Shown here one piece after another: positions 23,641 to 35,518 of a stretch of DNA of 64,000 bases (position 1 is the stretch's first letter; every line of letters starts with the position of its first letter). A program made the translations under genes and the position numbers. This DNA comes from a virus (Duplodnaviria > Caudoviricetes): IMG/VR virus record IMGVR_UViG_3300035208_007487, one strand, 5' to 3'. A model generated the notes under the pieces. It made no database searches. It saw nothing but the letters and a program-made list of their open reading frames with translations, and was not told the origin of the DNA.

Positions 23641-23909
23641 TAAGTTCCTGCTTTTACACTAGGATCGTTATTAATTACACATTTTGCATCGTGACTAGTA
23701 TACCAAACACCTGGATAAGAAGGATATTCCCAATGATTTTTTATTGGATCTTGCACTGGAGATTGTGGAAATTTAGTCCAATCTATTATTGTTGGAGTTT
23801 TATCTACAATAGTTTTTAATTGATTATATAAATCGCTGGCTTCTTCAAAAGTTAGAATATATTCATCATCTCCCAGCTTTATTTTAATTTCTTGGCTTAT
23901 TTTAATCAT
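23640..23909 (-). CDS. Hypothetical protein
   Basis: 89-aa ORF coupled to both neighbours. Confidence 0.55.
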   Translation of the reverse strand: MIKISQEIKIKLGDDEYILTFEEASDLYNQLKTIVDKTPTIIDWTKFPQSPVQDPIKNHWEYPSYPGVWYTSHDAKCVINNDPSVKAGT

Positions 23910-24220
23910 TATACTTTTCCTGTAGTTGAACCTAATCCACCTTCTCTAACATCTCCATTATCCAAACTATCGCCATCAATTAATAAAAATTTAGCAAAAA
24001 TACCTTGAGCAAATGATTCACCTCTAAGTATTTTTAATGTTTTGGTTCCTTGATTATGCAATCTAATAAATATTTCACCTTCATTTTTAGGATTATTGTA
24101 ATAATCACAATTATGCAAGCATATATGATTTCCAAAAAAATTGTGATTATTATCAACATTTAAATAATATATTTTCATGTCAGATATTTTTGTTAATGAC
24201 TTTACTTTTACAAACTGCAT
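23909..24220 (-). CDS. dut: Split-intein C-half (37 aa) fused to dUTPase C-terminal extein
   Basis: VKVKS..IYYLNVDNNHNFF..CLHN|CDYYNN..EGEI..FAQGIF..REGGLGST. Confidence 0.9.
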   Translation of the reverse strand: MQFVKVKSLTKISDMKIYYLNVDNNHNFFGNHICLHNCDYYNNPKNEGEIFIRLHNQGTKTLKILRGESFAQGIFAKFLLIDGDSLDNGDVREGGLGSTTGKV

Positions 24221-25177: not shown

Positions 25178-25738
25178 TCATATTATTGTCAATATTTCAT
25201 CATCTAAGGTTAAATCTTTAACAATCACCCAGCCTCTTTTAGTATAGACTTTTTTAGTAGCAGGAATTTTCACTGAATCTCCATTAGTTAATTCTAAATT
25301 AACCATATTGATGCCATCCACTTCAATAATTTCATTTAATAAATCTTCTTCTATTATATTTTTTTCTTCATTATATGAATAGACATTTTTTATATTTTTT
25401 TTAAGAACATCTAGCACTGAATATTCCCCACTTGGAGTAGATATTAATGTTTCGCCTGGAACACAATCTATTATTCCAACTGTGTTTGCTAATCTAACTG
25501 AATACTTAAATCCAAGCCCACTTCTAGGGTAAATAAATAAAGCTTCATCTGGTAACATAAAAGCTTTATATTTTGTGGTTAATATATCGCTCAATTCCCC
25601 TGGTTCAATAATTATATCAAATCCAGTATTGTTGAATATGTCATAACCAGCCGCATGCTTTGTAGCTCGGATTGGCTTTTTTAGAGTTTCATTTGAATAT
25701 TTTGAAACTACTTCAAAATCTCTATTTTTATCTGACAT
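25178..25738 (-). CDS. dut: dUTPase N-terminal extein fused to split-intein N-half (95 aa, from Cys at 25465)
   Basis: AAGYD, PRSG, NTVGIID|CVPGETLI..VYTKRGW..DL..DDEI. Confidence 0.9.
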   Translation of the reverse strand: MSDKNRDFEVVSKYSNETLKKPIRATKHAAGYDIFNNTGFDIIIEPGELSDILTTKYKAFMLPDEALFIYPRSGLGFKYSVRLANTVGIIDCVPGETLISTPSGEYSVLDVLKKNIKNVYSYNEEKNIIEEDLLNEIIEVDGINMVNLELTNGDSVKIPATKKVYTKRGWVIVKDLTLDDEILTII

Positions 25739-25825: not shown

Positions 25826-26125
25826 TTGAGGGATAATATGTTTAAATGGATTTCTGAATTTTTTAGTGCAGCTAATGGAAACGCTTCTAGTAAAAGATTA
25901 GTTAAAATAGCTTCTACTATATCTGCAATAGGTATTGGATGGTATAGTATTATATCAGGGCATCCTCTTGATACTAATGTATTAATACTAGTAACTTCAA
26001 TAGCTGGATTATCAACTGGATCATATATATTAACTAACAAAAATGAAACAGCTAAATCAGCAATAATTAATACCATTAATACCGTAGTTGCGTCTGAAAA
26101 AGTTCCTGATAAGGATGATGAATAA
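25826..26125 (+). CDS. Putative holin
   Basis: Two TM segments, SSKR motif, coupled to the endolysin; CATAAATA upstream. Confidence 0.65.
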   Translation: MRDNMFKWISEFFSAANGNASSKRLVKIASTISAIGIGWYSIISGHPLDTNVLILVTSIAGLSTGSYILTNKNETAKSAIINTINTVVASEKVPDKDDE

Positions 26126-26583
26126 TGAATTCGTTATCTAGTGCATTAGTCTTTACTCTAAAATGGGAAGGTGGCTATGTAAATAATCCTAACGATCCAG
26201 GTGGAGAAACAAATAAAGGAATTACAAAATCAGTATATGATGCATATAGAAAAGATAGAAAATCACCGATCCAATCAGTAAAATTAATAAGTGATGATGA
26301 AGTTTTTGCCATATATTCACAACAATATTGGTGCTGCGCAGGATGTGATAAAATATCTGATGTTAAATTAGCAATAAGTGTATTTGATTTCGCAGTAAAT
26401 GGCGGAGTAAGCCGAGCAATCAGATATTTAGCTCTATGTAATAATGACTATAAAAAATATATAGAGTTAAGGATCGCGTACTATAATAAAATAGTAGCTG
26501 TTAACCCTAAATTAAAAGTGTTTCTAAAAGGCTGGCTTAATAGAACAACCAGCCTTTTAACGTATCTAAAATCTATTCATTAA
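26125..26583 (+). CDS. Endolysin, glycoside hydrolase family 108
   Basis: EGGYVNNPNDPGGETNKGIT and C-terminal F.KGWLNR. Confidence 0.92.
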   Translation: MNSLSSALVFTLKWEGGYVNNPNDPGGETNKGITKSVYDAYRKDRKSPIQSVKLISDDEVFAIYSQQYWCCAGCDKISDVKLAISVFDFAVNGGVSRAIRYLALCNNDYKKYIELRIAYYNKIVAVNPKLKVFLKGWLNRTTSLLTYLKSIH

Positions 26584-28291
26584 ATCCAGTATAATTATTT
26601 AAAATAGTATCTCGCATTGAAAATCCAAATGATCTATTTGACAAAATCAGCACAGGTGAACCCTGTGCTCTCTTATATGCAGTTGTCTTGATTTTTTTCC
26701 AAGCCAAATATACATTCTTAGTAATATCTTCCAAGGTATATCCCCATAAATCACCTGAATAATTGGATTCTGCTCGTATTGCATTAATAACTTCTTTAGG
26801 GGTCATGCCTTCTCGAATGAACAATTCACAAACTCTGCTCATAATTACATAATCAAAAGGATCTTCGTTACTATCTTCTAATTCTGCTGCTGGTTTTAAT
26901 GATCCATCATACAAGCATTTTGGAATTACTTCAACCATCTCTACTTTATTAATATATTCAGCTAATTTAAAGATCTCAGTTTTACTTAGATCCCCAATTG
27001 GCTGCAAAATTCCACAATAGTTTCCAATATCGCCAAATGAATTCCACCCTAATGCATTTTCAGTATGGTTTCCACAGGATAATAAACCGCTATTATAATT
27101 ATGAGTAGCAGAAATACCCAAAGCCTTTCGCAAAGTGGCTTCAAACGAAGCTATTTGTCCTGGCTTGGCATCTGGGTTGTTTTTCTTGTATACATCTATA
27201 TATTCAATAATAGGTTCATACTTTAATTCTACTCCTAAGTTAGTGGCTAATACTTGAGCATTATTTAAAGTAATTTTCCCATTATTTTTTGAAGGCTGAG
27301 TTATGAATATTACATGATCCTTATCCATAGCTTTAACGGCGAAATATCCAACTAAAGCTGAATCAATTCCTCCGCTAATATGAACTTGAGCATTTTCAAT
27401 GTGGCATTGTTCGTATATATGCTTAATTGAATAAATGATTGCATTTGCAATCATACCATATTTTGATTTATTTTCTAAAATATTGCTAGTATAATCCTCA
27501 CTAGTTAATTCTAAATCAGAATCATTCAAAATAACTGTAGCTAAATGCTCCTTAAATCTAGGAGCAACTTGAGTTACATAGTGTTCATTATTTTTATTGT
27601 GTGAAATTAATGATCCACCATCATAGCACATAAAATTCTTACTAATATCACCAATTCCTACACTATTAACATATAAAATAGGAATAATATTATGAATATT
27701 ATGTAAAATATTAGCTCGCTGCTGCTTCTTGTCAAAAGTAAAATAACTAAAATTTAGAGAAAAAATTACTTCAGCACCTTCTTCTGCATTTTCTCTAATT
27801 AAATCCTTAGAATAAGAATTCCAAAGATCTTCGCAAATTAAAACTCCAAATTTAATACCATTATAGTATAATACCTTATTACTCTTTCCTGCGGTAAAGT
27901 ATTTACGATCTTCATGATGATAATCATTAGCTAATTTTTGTTTATCATAAATTCCAATAATCTTTCCATCAGCCAAAACGAATGCACTATTGTATAATTT
28001 ATGATTATCGTCTAATCTAGGTGATCCAATGATTACAACAGTTTTATTATTCTCGGTTAATTTAGCAATACTATTAACCCTATCTTCACAATCATGAATG
28101 AAAGGCTTTTTTTCAAATAAATCACCACAATTATAACCGCTTAATGTCATCTCAGGGAATACGATAAAATCATATTGTAAATTATCCTTTACAATATTGA
28201 AAGCTTTATTGTAATTGTCTTCAACGGCACCCGTTTTGATCTCAATTTGAGCCGCTAAAATCTTTTTTGCTTCAGGCATCAAATACTCCAT
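26573..28291 (-). CDS. nadE: Glutamine-dependent NAD+ synthetase
   Basis: Nitrilase triad (FPEM, YDK, ICEDLW) plus synthetase domain ISGGIDS, GN.TE, PIGDL.KT, P.AEL. Confidence 0.93.
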   Translation of the reverse strand: MEYLMPEAKKILAAQIEIKTGAVEDNYNKAFNIVKDNLQYDFIVFPEMTLSGYNCGDLFEKKPFIHDCEDRVNSIAKLTENNKTVVIIGSPRLDDNHKLYNSAFVLADGKIIGIYDKQKLANDYHHEDRKYFTAGKSNKVLYYNGIKFGVLICEDLWNSYSKDLIRENAEEGAEVIFSLNFSYFTFDKKQQRANILHNIHNIIPILYVNSVGIGDISKNFMCYDGGSLISHNKNNEHYVTQVAPRFKEHLATVILNDSDLELTSEDYTSNILENKSKYGMIANAIIYSIKHIYEQCHIENAQVHISGGIDSALVGYFAVKAMDKDHVIFITQPSKNNGKITLNNAQVLATNLGVELKYEPIIEYIDVYKKNNPDAKPGQIASFEATLRKALGISATHNYNSGLLSCGNHTENALGWNSFGDIGNYCGILQPIGDLSKTEIFKLAEYINKVEMVEVIPKCLYDGSLKPAAELEDSNEDPFDYVIMSRVCELFIREGMTPKEVINAIRAESNYSGDLWGYTLEDITKNVYLAWKKIKTTAYKRAQGSPVLILSNRSFGFSMRDTILNNYTGFNE

Positions 28292-29240
28292 TCTTTTTGT
28301 ATATGTTAAAAAGTGCTTTATGTTCAGGCATGAAATGATCTTCTGTTAAGTCAGATTTACTAAATAACCTCAACTCCCCACCTTTCATATCATCTAAAGG
28401 AATAAAATTTGATCCGACTTCAGCTTCTAATACAAATAAAGCAGTTTTAATGCAATGTTTAGATTTCTTATAACGAGGATCATTGACTCTAGGTCCAAAG
28501 ATGTATCGTAAGTTATCAATAGATCCAGTATATCCCGTTTCTTCCTGAACTTCCCGCAAAGCATCTTCCTCTAAAGATTCAGAATCTGGATCAGAAAATC
28601 CCCCAATAAATCTAAATTTATCTTGATTTGGCTTTCTACCTAATAATACCCCATCCCCAACTAAAATGCAAGCATCTACAGTTTGATAAGCTGTTGGATA
28701 TTGATTATTTGCCAAATAAAATGCTCCTTTAATGAACATAGGATCTGGTAAAAATACAGTAGAGCATTGCTGACGCATATTGGTTGCACTTATGCCGTCA
28801 TTAAAATATTGAAATCTAACTTTATTGTTAAATTCTCCAAAATAATGATCAATAAAAGAATCTCTTCCACCCATTAATCCAACTTCATCAGGAGTAGTAT
28901 AATATTTGCAATTTTTGATTTTCTCATCTAGCATTTTGGACCACTTAGGCACATCATGCACATCTACTAATTCAGTAAATTCAATGCGGCTAATAGTGCG
29001 AATAACGTCCCCCATCGTTGATTTTGGAGTATTGAATACATTATATAATGCTCTAATTAATAGTTCTACCCTTACTTCATAAGGAATTAAATCAATTTCT
29101 GTTTTGATACTATTTGAACCAATTACTACTAGTACACTATTTGCACTATTTAAAGCGCTTGTGATCAATGCAATATGAGATTCAGTTGGCTCTGGTGCTT
29201 GGAATTTTCCAACAACAACTCCTAATTTATAGTTAGACAT
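28272..29240 (-). CDS. nadM: Bifunctional NMN/NaMN adenylyltransferase - Nudix hydrolase (NadM-Nudix)
   Basis: GKFQ..TESH, GRDSF, ISATNMR; Nudix box GGFSD..SLEEDALREVQEETG. Confidence 0.88.
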   Translation of the reverse strand: MSNYKLGVVVGKFQAPEPTESHIALITSALNSANSVLVVIGSNSIKTEIDLIPYEVRVELLIRALYNVFNTPKSTMGDVIRTISRIEFTELVDVHDVPKWSKMLDEKIKNCKYYTTPDEVGLMGGRDSFIDHYFGEFNNKVRFQYFNDGISATNMRQQCSTVFLPDPMFIKGAFYLANNQYPTAYQTVDACILVGDGVLLGRKPNQDKFRFIGGFSDPDSESLEEDALREVQEETGYTGSIDNLRYIFGPRVNDPRYKKSKHCIKTALFVLEAEVGSNFIPLDDMKGGELRLFSKSDLTEDHFMPEHKALFNIYKKNGVFDA

Positions 29241-30408
29241 TTTTTACATCCTCCTCTAATGCATTCAATAAATATTCTTGATATTTTTTATTTTCGCACA
29301 TACTCTTTCCAATATCATTACTAATTTTAGAAACTGGACGACCATTAACTGAAGTGATCTTCATTACAATATTAAGTATTGTGTGATTTAATCCAACGTC
29401 ATTTGTTAAATTAGTACCGACTCCAAAAGAAACATTAATTTTGTTTCCAAATTCTTCATATAGTTTAATACAATCAGGAATACTTAAACTATTACTAAAA
29501 ACCATACTTTTTGTTTTAGGATCAATTCCATATTTTTTATAATGATTTAATATTTCATAACCCCATTTAATAGGATCACCACTATCATGTCTAACTCCAT
29601 TATAAGTCTTAGTTAAGTATTCATCAAAATCTTTTAAAAACTTATTGTTAGGAAAAATATCACTCAAAGCTATTAAGAAATTATTTCCCCATAATCTATT
29701 CCAATCATATAAACATTTAATTTGAGAATCAAGTGGATGATTGATTCCTTGATAAAATTGCAAAATAGAATGTCCCATTGTACCTAAAACATTAATATTA
29801 AATATTTTACCTAATTCTACATTTGAAGTACCTAATATATTATCAGTTTCACTTATTAATCTACTTAAAACATGTAAATGCCATTCTTTACTAAATCTGC
29901 GTCTAGTTCCAAATTCCATTAGTTTAATATTAGGATTATTGTTCAATAGCTCTATCTTGCTAGTTAATAATTCATCCCCTTTTACTTCAAAATCCTCTAA
30001 TTCTTTACGCGAATATAATTGCTCATTAAATGTCTCATTTACTATTGATAATACTGGAATATCCAATAATAATGTAGTCCAATACTCTCCTTTAACTTTA
30101 ATGTTTAAATTATTATTAATAATACTAACAATTATTCCATTTTCATCAAATGGTACATTATTATTAATATATTCATATAAGAAAGATAATTTATCATAAC
30201 ATATTTTATTTAAATATTTAACTTCATTGTTAGTAAATCTTAATTTAATATATTCAGATAATTGATATCTAACACTATCTGCAATATTGGATAGATTAAT
30301 ATCATTGCGGCACTTAAAAGAATATTCTACCCAATTTCCACTATGCTGTTTAGCTAGCGCAAGCATAGTAAACTGGTAAACATCAGTATCTAGAAAACTA
30401 GTTAACAT
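29233..30408 (-). CDS. pncB: Nicotinate phosphoribosyltransferase
   Basis: SFLDTDVYQFTM, EFGTRRR, GTSNV, GTMGH, GVRHDSGDP, FGVGTNLTND, NIVMK. Confidence 0.92.
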   Translation of the reverse strand: MLTSFLDTDVYQFTMLALAKQHSGNWVEYSFKCRNDINLSNIADSVRYQLSEYIKLRFTNNEVKYLNKICYDKLSFLYEYINNNVPFDENGIIVSIINNNLNIKVKGEYWTTLLLDIPVLSIVNETFNEQLYSRKELEDFEVKGDELLTSKIELLNNNPNIKLMEFGTRRRFSKEWHLHVLSRLISETDNILGTSNVELGKIFNINVLGTMGHSILQFYQGINHPLDSQIKCLYDWNRLWGNNFLIALSDIFPNNKFLKDFDEYLTKTYNGVRHDSGDPIKWGYEILNHYKKYGIDPKTKSMVFSNSLSIPDCIKLYEEFGNKINVSFGVGTNLTNDVGLNHTILNIVMKITSVNGRPVSKISNDIGKSMCENKKYQEYLLNALEEDVKNV

Positions 30409-30426
30409 TTTATTTTCTCCTGTTGA

Positions 30427-31302
30427 TTAAGATTTGTTTCTAACTGCCAAAATCACACTCTTGTTTCTTTTTAATATTTTACTAATATCTTCATCTGAAT
30501 AATTTAATTCAATCAAATATTCAATATTAACTCTATCTATTATTTCACTATTTTCGTCACAATTAATATTATTCATCTTTAATGTTTCACATACAATTGA
30601 TTCACTGCACCCAACTACTTTAGCTATTTTTGATTGGCCCACTCCATCAATATGCAAAGAAATAATTAAATCTCTATCTACTCTTTTATTATAATTATTT
30701 TTTAATGAAGCTATTTTCTTATATATTTCATCTTTATATTTTTTAAACATTTCAATGTTTGCATGTTCATCTCTATGACAATTTGAGCATAATACTTTAC
30801 ATTTATCTAATTCGCTATATATTAAATCAATGTTTTCATTTATTTTATTTTTAGTAAATACTACTAAATCACTTATTCCATATTCCTTATTAATAATATG
30901 ATGGAATTCTAATGATTGTATCGTTTTATTATACCCACATTTTTCACAACTATTAATATTTTTATATTTTAGAAACAATTCTTTATTTAAAAATGTTTCA
31001 TATTTACTATCATCTACATGATGTAATTCTCTATGACAATTTCCGCACAAACATATACATTTTAAGCTTTCTTTATATAACTTCTCATAAGAAAAATCGC
31101 CTTTAGTACCAATTTCAAATAATTTAGTATTTGGATCTAAATGATGAAATTGATATATCCAGGGTCTATCTAGATCAGATATTCCGCATTTTTGGCATCT
31201 GCCTCCGTGAGCTTGGATTAATTTTATCTTCTTAGCCATTTTTATAATATAGCGGCTTATTTTTGTTTTATTTAAATCTCTATTTCCTTTATAATAACTC
31301 AT
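30427..31302 (-). CDS. Homing endonuclease with two HNH domains and C-terminal HTH
   Basis: Two copies of CxKCG..FHH..KC..LC.NCHR..H. Confidence 0.85.
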   Translation of the reverse strand: MSYYKGNRDLNKTKISRYIIKMAKKIKLIQAHGGRCQKCGISDLDRPWIYQFHHLDPNTKLFEIGTKGDFSYEKLYKESLKCICLCGNCHRELHHVDDSKYETFLNKELFLKYKNINSCEKCGYNKTIQSLEFHHIINKEYGISDLVVFTKNKINENIDLIYSELDKCKVLCSNCHRDEHANIEMFKKYKDEIYKKIASLKNNYNKRVDRDLIISLHIDGVGQSKIAKVVGCSESIVCETLKMNNINCDENSEIIDRVNIEYLIELNYSDEDISKILKRNKSVILAVRNKS

Positions 31303-31368: not shown

Positions 31369-31405
31369 CAAAAAATGGGCCAGCTTTAAATATAAAACCG
31401 GCCCA
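31369..31405 (-). terminator. Probable terminator after thyX
   Basis: tgggcc..ggccca stem followed by a U-run on the minus strand. Confidence 0.5.
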
Positions 31406-34322: not shown

Positions 34323-34589
34323 TCATTTATTTGAAACAGCTACTTCAACATAGTCTCCTGAATTTCCTAATAAAATAGTCGAGCCATTTTTGTTTAATAA
34401 ACGTGTCCTATCTATCGTATATTCCCCAATTCTAAATAATATTTCAGGATTAGTTCCTGGAACTTTTTCATTTATTATGCTATCTATTACTGCAATTGAT
34501 ATTGTAGGAGTACTCGTTCCACTATAATCTCTAAAAATCACAGCATCCCCTTTAGCTACGTTACACATTTCTTTAATTTCAATTATCAT
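34323..34589 (-). CDS. Hypothetical protein
   Basis: 88-aa coupled ORF. Confidence 0.55.
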   Translation of the reverse strand: MIIEIKEMCNVAKGDAVIFRDYSGTSTPTISIAVIDSIINEKVPGTNPEILFRIGEYTIDRTRLLNKNGSTILLGNSGDYVEVAVSNK

Positions 34590-35053
34590 TACTTATCTCC
34601 ACTTCTTCTGCATACGATTACTTCAGGATATACTGAGAATATGATTGATTCTACTGTTTTCCAATCACCTCCGCCTAATCCACATCCAATCTTAAATGGA
34701 ATGTAAACTGGTTTATGTTTAATATTCACTAATTTGAGAAAAGTGAAGCATGATTTAATGGCTTCGTAGCTAGTATATAATTTTCCATCATAACCATAAT
34801 CATATTGCATGAATGCATTAACTATTTTTAAGTTATCATTGATGGTTACAATATTGTTTGTTCCTAATATTGCATCTGCTTCTCCATTATTATAATAATC
34901 TTTTATTACTTTTGAATAGCCATTAAAAATTATTGGGTATTTTTTTCTAAGTTGACCCGCAACTCCACTACCCATTCTACCCCTGCAATTAACTTGATGA
35001 ACAATAAATCCCTCATCAATTAATGTAATATCTTTTTCAATCTCTTCTAGCAT
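34589..35053 (-). CDS. Macrodomain (ADP-ribose binding/hydrolase) protein
   Basis: DIT..IVHQVNC.G.MGSGVA..L.KKYP; PFKIGCGLGGGDW. Confidence 0.9.
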   Translation of the reverse strand: MLEEIEKDITLIDEGFIVHQVNCRGRMGSGVAGQLRKKYPIIFNGYSKVIKDYYNNGEADAILGTNNIVTINDNLKIVNAFMQYDYGYDGKLYTSYEAIKSCFTFLKLVNIKHKPVYIPFKIGCGLGGGDWKTVESIIFSVYPEVIVCRRSGDK

Positions 35054-35065
35054 TAATTATTCCTC

Positions 35066-35518
35066 TTAATTACAATGCATTTGAATGTCGTCTTCAGTAA
35101 ATACATAAAACAACATTCCATTTGCAGTAGCATATGCGTTAGCTGCTTTAAATTTAGCATTATTCACTACATATTGCTTAGTTTCAGTCATTACAGTTTT
35201 TTTAGATCTATGCTCAGTTTTAGGCGGATTTAATTGCTTTTTTGGTTTAACTTCAATTAATATACGTTTACGTTCACCATTTTGTCCAGCTATCTCAACA
35301 TAAAAGTCTACAAAATATCTATGGATTTTCCCATCTAATGGAGACATATAGGGCACTGTAACTAATTCACTACCCCATTTAACGATATTATCATTATTAT
35401 CTAAAAACCACATCACTCTACGCTCCCAAGATGATCTAAAATTAGGAGTATGATCTCCTAAATATTTTTCTTTATTTATTGGGTGATATAATCCAATTGG
35501 TGGTAACTTAGAATTCAC
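35066..35518 (-). CDS. Head completion nuclease (T4 gp4-like)
   Basis: RSSWE, WGSE, PY.SP.DG..HRYFVDF, IEVKP. Confidence 0.9.
   Translation of the reverse strand: MNSKLPPIGLYHPINKEKYLGDHTPNFRSSWERRVMWFLDNNDNIVKWGSELVTVPYMSPLDGKIHRYFVDFYVEIAGQNGERKRILIEVKPKKQLNPPKTEHRSKKTVMTETKQYVVNNAKFKAANAYATANGMLFYVFTEDDIQMHCN

Follow-up and report, generated by a model that had tools for sequence, protein, structure and literature searches.

A phage pncB-nadM-nadE cluster is predicted to encode a nicotinate-to-NAD+ pathway within a T4-like nucleotide-metabolism module

What does a phage gain from three adjacent genes of NAD+ biosynthesis, and could their products together carry nicotinate all the way to NAD+? 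The question is raised by the viral record IMGVR_UViG_3300035208_007487 (Duplodnaviria; Caudoviricetes), of which a stretch of 64,000 nucleotides (nt), here called the window, was analysed together with its assembly and with related loci in public databases. At window positions 26573-30408, three overlapping genes, all on the minus strand, encode a nicotinate phosphoribosyltransferase (PncB), an adenylyltransferase fused to a Nudix domain (NadM/Nudix) and a glutamine-dependent NAD+ synthetase (NadE). The open reading frames (ORFs) fall exactly where an earlier note, made from the letters of the DNA alone, had placed them, and the families and catalytic motifs are in place for what that note had called a phage-borne, complete nicotinate-to-NAD+ set and what we would call an apparently complete one. 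Our reading, to which we assign a probability of about 60%, is that the genes provide a working three-enzyme pathway from nicotinate to NAD+, made as one translationally coupled unit within the nucleotide-metabolism module of an uncultured T4-like jumbo-phage lineage. Gene identities, motifs, fold, synteny and conservation are what we observed; the enzymatic activities, the substrate order and the biological role are predicted from them.

For the phosphoribosyltransferase, the profile check that the earlier note had proposed came out on the side of PncB rather than NadV or NAMPT. The protein matches the NCBIfam equivalog TIGR01514 over its full length at 319.5 bits (cut-off 269.55), NF003704 at 379 bits (cut-off 379) and the Pfam families NAPRTase and NAPRTase_N (E 2e-55), and it scores 45.7 bits against the PHROG NAMPT model. 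Its best solved relatives are bacterial PncBs (3os4, E 1e-65; 1yir, E 2e-65, aligned along the whole length), and the nearest relatives beyond the phage clade are proteobacterial. Both motifs that the earlier note had read, GTMGH with its phospho-histidine and RHDSG, are present, with H213 and R273-S276 invariant in 12 phage-clade sequences. The assembly contains no detectable NAMPT: PF04095 retrieves only two PncB-type genes, and a NAMPT query retrieves nothing. We assign the enzyme to PncB and not to NAMPT, a family placement that predicts a preference for nicotinate.

The last gene product of the cluster combines a nitrilase-type CN_hydrolase domain with an NAD_synthase domain (Pfam), and among solved structures it matches 5kha of Acinetobacter baumannii best. 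The triad E47, K117 and C153 aligns with 5kha and 4f4h, both of them solved glutamine-dependent enzymes, the ATP pyrophosphatase loop reads SGGIDS (S306-G-G-x-D-S311), and triad and loop are invariant in 13 clade members; the glutaminase domain thus looks catalytic, as had been claimed. An alternative start at 28279 would give a protein of 568 amino acids (aa), which is the size of a 99%-identical database homologue (P0243).

The middle protein was identified mainly by its fold and its family. Pfam matches only the Nudix half (NUDIX, 36.8 bits), and CTP_transf_like stays below threshold on this protein. A profile of the family matches the NadM proteins of Francisella (2qjt, E 4e-26) and Synechocystis (2qjo, E 6e-22) across both domains, the AlphaFold model has a predicted local distance difference test score (pLDDT) of 93.4, with the N-terminal domain above 90, and NadM chains (2qjt, 2qjo) occupy ranks 1-6 in a Foldseek search with that model. 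In an alignment of 29 family members, H22 and positions G124/R126-F129 of the GGRDSF segment are invariant throughout (29/29), and the ISxTxxR motif, ISATNMR in the window protein, has an invariant R156 and a nearly invariant S151. The same alignment shows E230, E233 and E234 of the Nudix core REVQEE (REx2EE) to be invariant, and the Nudix domain looks catalytic, in line with the earlier note, with one residue more than the textbook spacing in the N-terminal part of its box, before the first Glu.

Motif 1 of the adenylyltransferase domain reads HxA/GH in the 29-sequence alignment, PT-x-A/S-H in the clade of the window protein and (P)TESH in the window protein itself. The earlier note had listed TESH as a departure that might disable the enzyme, a suspicion that the wider family does not bear out. 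Within the clade T19, H22, S151, R156 and the GGRDSF segment are invariant, and threonine occupies the first position of the motif in 46 of 142 aligned family sequences, namely the window protein and the 141 representatives that scored best when 1.84 billion proteins were searched exhaustively. NAMPT-linked members, too, can have serine as the third residue. The accepted superfamily signature is (T/H)xGH, and phosphopantetheine adenylyltransferase has TxGH. From this distribution we read TESH as a natural, conserved variant of the clade and not as decay. We also considered whether a threonine at position 1 marks partnership with PncB, a rule that fits the window clade and, outside it, the PncB-linked protein of phage LR756500.1. 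It was rejected, as the NAMPT-linked L024 has TAGH, the PncB-linked canonical NadM of L088 has HNIH, and threonine recurs in nearly a third of the aligned family.

On these assignments, PncB would join nicotinate to phosphoribosyl pyrophosphate (PRPP) to give nicotinate mononucleotide (NaMN) in a reaction coupled to ATP through His213, the NadM domain would adenylylate NaMN to nicotinate adenine dinucleotide (NaAD), and NadE would draw ammonia from glutamine at E47-K117-C153 and convert NaAD to NAD+. The fused Nudix domain would hydrolyse free ADP-ribose, yielding AMP and ribose-5-phosphate. The module would raise the capacity for NAD+ synthesis with or without a defence in the host, as the NAD+ reconstitution pathway NARP2 does, and would so support phage replication; it would blunt NAD+-depleting defences only in hosts that can provide nicotinate, whether made by their own PncA or taken from the medium. 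We favour such a general NAD+-supply function, doubling as relief from NAD+ depletion only with host nicotinate, because the phage encodes no nicotinamidase and because the cluster stands in the conserved nucleotide-metabolism block directly after thyX and not in a variable island.

The arrangement of the genes agrees with a single unit. The pncB and nadM frames overlap by 8 nt and those of nadM and nadE by 20 nt, and since the genes overlap behind a single start led by a ribosome-binding site, the layout suggests an operon. The cluster sits inside a nucleotide-metabolism module, between thyX and dUTPase, and shares the strand and the 29% GC of its contig of 212,780 bp. Around it lie genes for ribonucleotide reductase (RNR), ThyX, a split dUTPase, a clamp loader, a helicase, an SbcC-like nuclease, a DNA polymerase, HNH nucleases and an endolysin (PHROGs, Pfam), and by this gene content the source of the contig is a large (jumbo) T4-like phage.

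The same order recurs in a relative. On a JGI metagenome contig (L060), pncB, nadM and nadE encode proteins 50, 35 and 55% identical to those of the window, and the contig is collinear with the window across RNR, a TnsA-like gene, Macro, thyX, the NAD genes, dUTPase, clamp loader and a Glf-like gene. The synteny survey that the earlier note had suggested thus found the pncB-nadM-nadE order again; it found no further case of the full combination in IMG/VR, where none of 80 phage loci with pncB, with neighbours counted within 7 kb, has NadM and NadE without PncA. Database homologues form tight clades (PncB 43-53%, NadM 38-50% and NadE 51-55% identity), and across clades whose members differ down to 45-55% identity the catalytic residues stay unchanged. 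Clade homologues of all three proteins could be placed together on contigs of 54,552 and 6,240 bp, and two of the three on contigs of 16,624, 64,566, 170,284, 25,110 and 10,351 bp, in each case indirectly, through identical contig sizes. A scan of IMG/VR with the window NadM alone gave no matches, and scans of IMG/VR, GTDB and JGI with a clade profile gave, L060 excepted, relatives only 26-42% identical; the NadM clade comprises about ten representatives at 50% identity. A quick maximum-likelihood tree unites the window NadM, that of L060 and six relatives from databases in one clade (Shimodaira-Hasegawa-like approximate likelihood ratio test 99) apart from all NAMPT-linked sequences. The NadM of LR756500.1, a 462-kb phage with pncB 1.5 kb from NadM/Nudix and a single-domain NadE 30 kb off, stands elsewhere on the tree on a long branch. 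The pncB and NadM/Nudix genes of that phage are interleaved with genes for an ADP-ribosylglycohydrolase, a ClpP-like protease, a nucleoside 2-deoxyribosyltransferase-like protein and a PIN-domain protein.

Elsewhere in the family, the usual partner of NadM/Nudix is NAMPT. The clade profile retrieved 33 IMG/VR loci, and in every one NAMPT comes next after NadM/Nudix; it does so too in the cultured phage Tunturi_5 and in most of the GTDB and JGI loci that extend far enough to include the adjacent gene. Judged by gene content, this order is the NARP2 layout. Of the phages that we checked, the two with PncB, LR756500.1 and Atu_ph07, encode NadE, and Tunturi_5, with NAMPT, does not. The simplest story is one of replacement, in which a NARP2-type pair would have lost its NAMPT and gained a proteobacterial-type PncB together with NadE. 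The window module would then be a hybrid whose NadM/Nudix descends from the NAMPT-partner family. The clade also has sequence changes of its own. The NP(L/F) motif after strand 2, which is kept from Francisella NadM through the NAMPT-linked phage proteins, has given way to (I/V)DL(I/V)P in the window protein and its closest relatives and to looser variants in the rest of the clade, and further fixed differences are I170 for Arg, P255 for Trp and S260 for Glu. That these changes alter the preference between nicotinamide mononucleotide (NMN) and NaMN is conjecture. A bolder proposal, which we think doubtful, is that the clade switched from NMN to NaMN when the lineage swapped NAMPT for PncB and NadE, and that it rebuilds NAD+ through deamidated intermediates as a functionally distinct escape route derived from NARP2. 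If this were true, NaMN and NaAD would escape both the NADase effectors and the NMN-directed functions of the host; the idea of NaAD as an NADase-proof pool is speculation. The same adenylyltransferase family, with NAMPT in most phages and with PncB and NadE here, amounts to a natural partner-swap experiment that could reveal what determines NMN versus NaMN specificity in NadM enzymes.

Several observations weigh against a working pathway from nicotinate. Besides the loss of NP(L/F), nadM is the fastest-evolving gene of the block, with 35% identity to L060 where its neighbours have 50-62%. NadE is a divergent member of its family, to judge by a score of 285.8 bits against NF010588, below the cut-off of 479, over positions 5-543 of 546. 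NadM-family enzymes often prefer NMN (PMC3376133). Neither PncA nor Prs nor a niacin transporter was found that would account for the supply of precursors. The earlier note had reported neither nicotinamidase nor PRPP synthase in the window, and this extends to the assembly, where the nicotinamidase family (isochorismatase family, PF00857) has zero matches and Prs-like matches are confined to bacterial contigs of 43% GC, with none on phage contigs. That assembly (G000) is a chimeric bin in which 26 contigs amounting to 1.24 Mb at 24-34% GC (about 28%) are mixed with about 1.1 Mb of bacterial sequence at about 43% GC, and the low-GC part holds no fewer than two distinct large phages, with another DNA polymerase and another clamp loader on contig C60. 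We rejected any inference of the host from this mixture of phages and a bacterium, in which failure to detect PncA, PncB and NadA says little about the true host.

The order of steps 2 and 3, which the earlier note had assumed, could also be a different one. According to PMC3376133, NadM replaces NadD in Francisella tularensis and the NadE homologue there is a single-domain NMN synthetase, so that NadM-type enzymes can act after amidation. By analogy, the phage PncB would make NaMN, NadE would turn it into NMN as an NMN synthetase, and an NMN-specific NadM would finish NAD+ with no NaAD on the way. This order would suit the coupling, in F. tularensis, of NadM-for-NadD replacement with an adapted NadE homologue, and it would suit the closest relatives of the window NadM, which all act downstream of NAMPT and hence on NMN. 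Contig C3 of the same bin, with pncB, a single-domain NadE and no recognizable adenylyltransferase, points the same way. The known NMN synthetase is, however, single-domain, whereas the window NadE is the fused glutaminase form that acts on NaAD in Acinetobacter (PMC3376133), and the context of motif 1 in the clade has changed, with NP(L/F) lost in the mononucleotide-side region, as expected if the substrate changed. We clearly prefer the classical order through NaAD and consider the Francisella order unlikely. It is less likely still that the adenylyltransferase domain is a pseudoenzyme, with only the Nudix half at work and host NadD performing step 2. The deviation of TESH from HxGH, the loss of NP(L/F), the rank of nadM as the least conserved gene of the block and the subthreshold CTP_transf_like match could be read in this way, but the clade-wide invariance of the catalytic positions, the conservation of H22, R156 and G124/R126-F129 in 29/29 family members, the recurrence of both motif-1 residues elsewhere in the family (the serine in NAMPT-linked proteins too) and the confidently modelled N-terminal domain all argue against it.

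Whether the pathway serves supply or defence is a separate matter. A dedicated counter-defence module of the NARP kind, which would rebuild NAD+ after TIR, SIR2 or SEFIR effectors have acted, with the Nudix domain clearing or recycling ADP-ribose and host PncA feeding in nicotinate derived from nicotinamide, is plausible, and we hold it possible without thinking it probable. It draws on the descent of NadM/Nudix from the family of NAMPT and Nmnat pairs, as NARP2 of such a layout defeats Thoeris and DSR2 (bioRxiv 10.1101/2024.02.11.579819), on a conserved Macro-domain gene that lies 4 kb upstream of the cluster in the window as in L060, and on the presence of pncA at 53 of 80 phage pncB loci, in agreement with a general theme of nicotinamide recycling. 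The same count makes the counter-defence reading weaker here than for typical phage clusters, because the window phage has no pncA: NADases release nicotinamide, and for a phage without nicotinamidase its recycling would depend on the host. With no PncA in the assembly the phage alone cannot begin from the NADase product; moreover, the genes lie between thyX and dUTPase in a conserved block and not in a variable anti-defence island, and PRPP-dependent synthesis runs irrespective of defence. General NAD+ supply is for these reasons the role we favour. That the genes are bacterial and reached the record by misassembly or misbinning is very improbable. The bin does mix bacterial contigs of 43% GC with 1.24 Mb of contigs at about 28%, and the next relatives of PncB after the phage clade are proteobacterial, but the NAD genes share the GC and strand of a contig rich in phage replication genes, their block is collinear in an independent metagenome contig, and the bacterial NadE copies of the bin lie on other contigs, of 42-43% GC.

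The coordinates of the cluster and of the features around it are collected in the table. The gap from the upstream HNH gene to pncB is 18 nt, too short for a separate pncB promoter. A strong terminator-like hairpin of 13 pairs followed by a T run lies between thyX and that HNH gene; given its position 3' of thyX, pncB transcripts need either read-through or a start within the following ~70 nt. A promoter scan gave no more sites than shuffled sequence. The HNH gene, which encodes a double-HNH endonuclease, is missing from L060, where pncB follows thyX directly, and it looks like a mobile insertion. Both halves of the window dUTPase gene map onto one contiguous 170-aa gene of L060 with 64% identity each, a comparison that confirms, at the level of gene structure, the splitting of the window gene by an inserted element with an HNH-type nuclease. 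On the other side of the cluster, the 3' end of a GH108 endolysin gene overlaps the nadE stop region by 11 nt; the spacing between nadE and dUTPase in L060 is only ~100 nt, so the endolysin gene does not occupy that interval. The Macro-domain gene upstream of the NAD genes (Pfam 29.8 bits, cut-off 22) has a 57.5%-identical counterpart at the same position in L060, and further Macro-domain matches lie on contigs C3 (Pfam) and C172 (a 34%-identical homologue); the Macro protein may partner the NAD module in an ADP-ribose-related role. Adjoining it is a gene with a TnsA-like endonuclease N-terminal domain (Pfam E 3e-21; 60% identity in L060).

Table. Features of the NAD cluster, its neighbourhood and the other loci discussed, in window coordinates unless another sequence is named
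Feature	Coordinates	Strand	Basis
pncB, nicotinate phosphoribosyltransferase, 391 aa	29233-30408	-	ORF; TIGR01514, Pfam and PDB matches
nadM/Nudix, 322 aa: predicted (Na)MN adenylyltransferase (~1-165) and ADP-ribose-pyrophosphatase-type Nudix domain (~180-322)	28272-29240	-	profile, AlphaFold, Foldseek, motifs
nadE, two-domain glutamine-dependent NAD+ synthetase, 572 aa	26573-28291	-	Pfam CN_hydrolase and NAD_synthase, PDB
AGGAG ribosome-binding site, 8 nt ahead of the pncB ATG	30417-30421	-	direct sequence reading
dUTPase, one half	25178-25738	-	L060 comparison
dUTPase, other half	23909-24220	-	L060 comparison
GH108 endolysin	26125-26583	+	
Double-HNH endonuclease	30427-31302	-	
Terminator-like hairpin	31376-31405	-	
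Macro-domain gene	34589-35053	-	Pfam
TnsA-like endonuclease N-terminal domain gene	35066-35518	-	Pfam
Divergent pncB, then single-domain nadE (L016)	G000:C3:5929-7946	-	
pncB and NadM/Nudix region (L017)	LR756500.1 40000-53000		
NadD-like adenylyltransferase-Nudix fusion (IMG/VR)	L091 834-1895		
NadD-like adenylyltransferase-Nudix fusion (IMG/VR)	L093 5784-6887		

Two other kinds of phage locus pair pncB with different partners. On C3, a second low-GC phage-like contig of the bin, pncB encodes a divergent protein of 398 aa, with 27% identity to the window PncB, and stands immediately before a gene for a single-domain NadE of 272 aa. No recognizable adenylyltransferase was found at this pair, and a 149-aa ORF upstream of the C3 pncB, considered as a small NMNAT, was rejected as not being an adenylyltransferase. 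Two IMG/VR loci carry a NadD-like adenylyltransferase fused to Nudix no more than 7 kb from pncB (immediately upstream in L093), with the motifs DPITKAH (L091) and DPLTKGH (L093), in which threonine again comes first. By domain content these proteins add a third type of adenylyltransferase-Nudix fusion to those of phage NAD clusters.

How the window cluster relates to known systems also bears on the claim of the earlier note that it is a distinct third route, a claim of novelty that finds no support. The name NARP3 belongs to PnuC plus NadR (Sci Adv 2026, PMC13464706); complete Preiss-Handler clusters of pncB, nadD and nadE were described in 'NAD-jumbo phages' such as Kuafu_71 and Kuafu_19 (Microbiome 2024, PMC11662467); and a 2026 paper on a cultured Xanthomonas phage lists pncB, nadM, nadD and nadE and proposes an anti-NAD-depletion role for them (PMC13384950). 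In our IMG/VR survey nadE lies near pncB at 54 of the 80 loci, pncA at 53 and nadD at 32, and the commonest set is NadE, NadD and PncA together (31/80). In the literature searched we found no bench test of phage Preiss-Handler clusters. Bacteria and phages contend over NAD+ as a main battleground; experiments have demonstrated three routes by which phages rebuild it, and the nicotinate route is widespread in phage metagenomes. The present locus is a compact, easily cloned three-gene version of it, and its missing nicotinamidase separates two questions, the benefit of extra NAD+ synthesis alone and the need for nicotinamide recycling.

Among cellular pathways, the nearest in enzyme types is that of Acinetobacter, which, as summarised in PMC3376133, pairs a bifunctional NadM with a glutamine-dependent NAD synthetase of the conventional fused kind (type F). 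The phage would use the same enzyme types at steps 2 and 3, and its NadE finds its best solved match there (5kha); unlike the phage cluster, the Acinetobacter pathway is cellular and dispersed, sequence identity is low, and the subfamily of the phage NadM is a different one. Francisella (PMC3376133) shares the replacement of NadD by NadM/Nudix and provides the best structural match of the phage NadM, whereas its NadE homologue is single-domain and that of the phage has a conserved glutaminase domain.

Among phage systems, NARP2 (Nampt plus Nmnat) of Vibrio phage KVP40 (Osterman et al.) yields excess NAD+ regardless of defence (bioRxiv 10.1101/2024.02.11.579819). The window cluster resembles it in using phage PRPP-dependent salvage enzymes and in a NadM/Nudix family that adjoins NAMPT in related phages, and differs in lacking Nampt, in a predicted start from nicotinate and not nicotinamide, and in the extra amidation step of NadE; KVP40 Nmnat was not among the phage matches at E 1e-5, so the relation of the window NadM to the characterized enzyme is distant. 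NARP1 consists of Adps, which is Prs-like, and Namat; in the assembly of the window phage, Prs-like matches fall on bacterial contigs only. NARP3 is likewise phage-encoded NAD+ rebuilding outside NARP1 and NARP2, but it uses imported nicotinamide riboside and other enzymes, and it was shown experimentally. The closest likeness is to the NAD-jumbo phages, which have genomes above 200 kb and clustered genes for nicotinate to NaMN, NaAD and NAD+, and for which, in silico only, an NAD+ supply was likewise proposed (PMC11662467). The window contig, at 212,780 bp, has pncB, a predicted NaMN adenylyltransferase gene and nadE side by side in the same manner, with NadM instead of NadD. Unlike the NAD-jumbo phages, it has a NadM/Nudix of the NAMPT-linked family, no PncA and a fixed place in a T4-like nucleotide-metabolism block. 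What is new here relative to these systems is modest, and consists of the partner swap within a NARP2 family, the conserved signature of the clade, the absence of PncA and the fixed place in a T4-like replication module.

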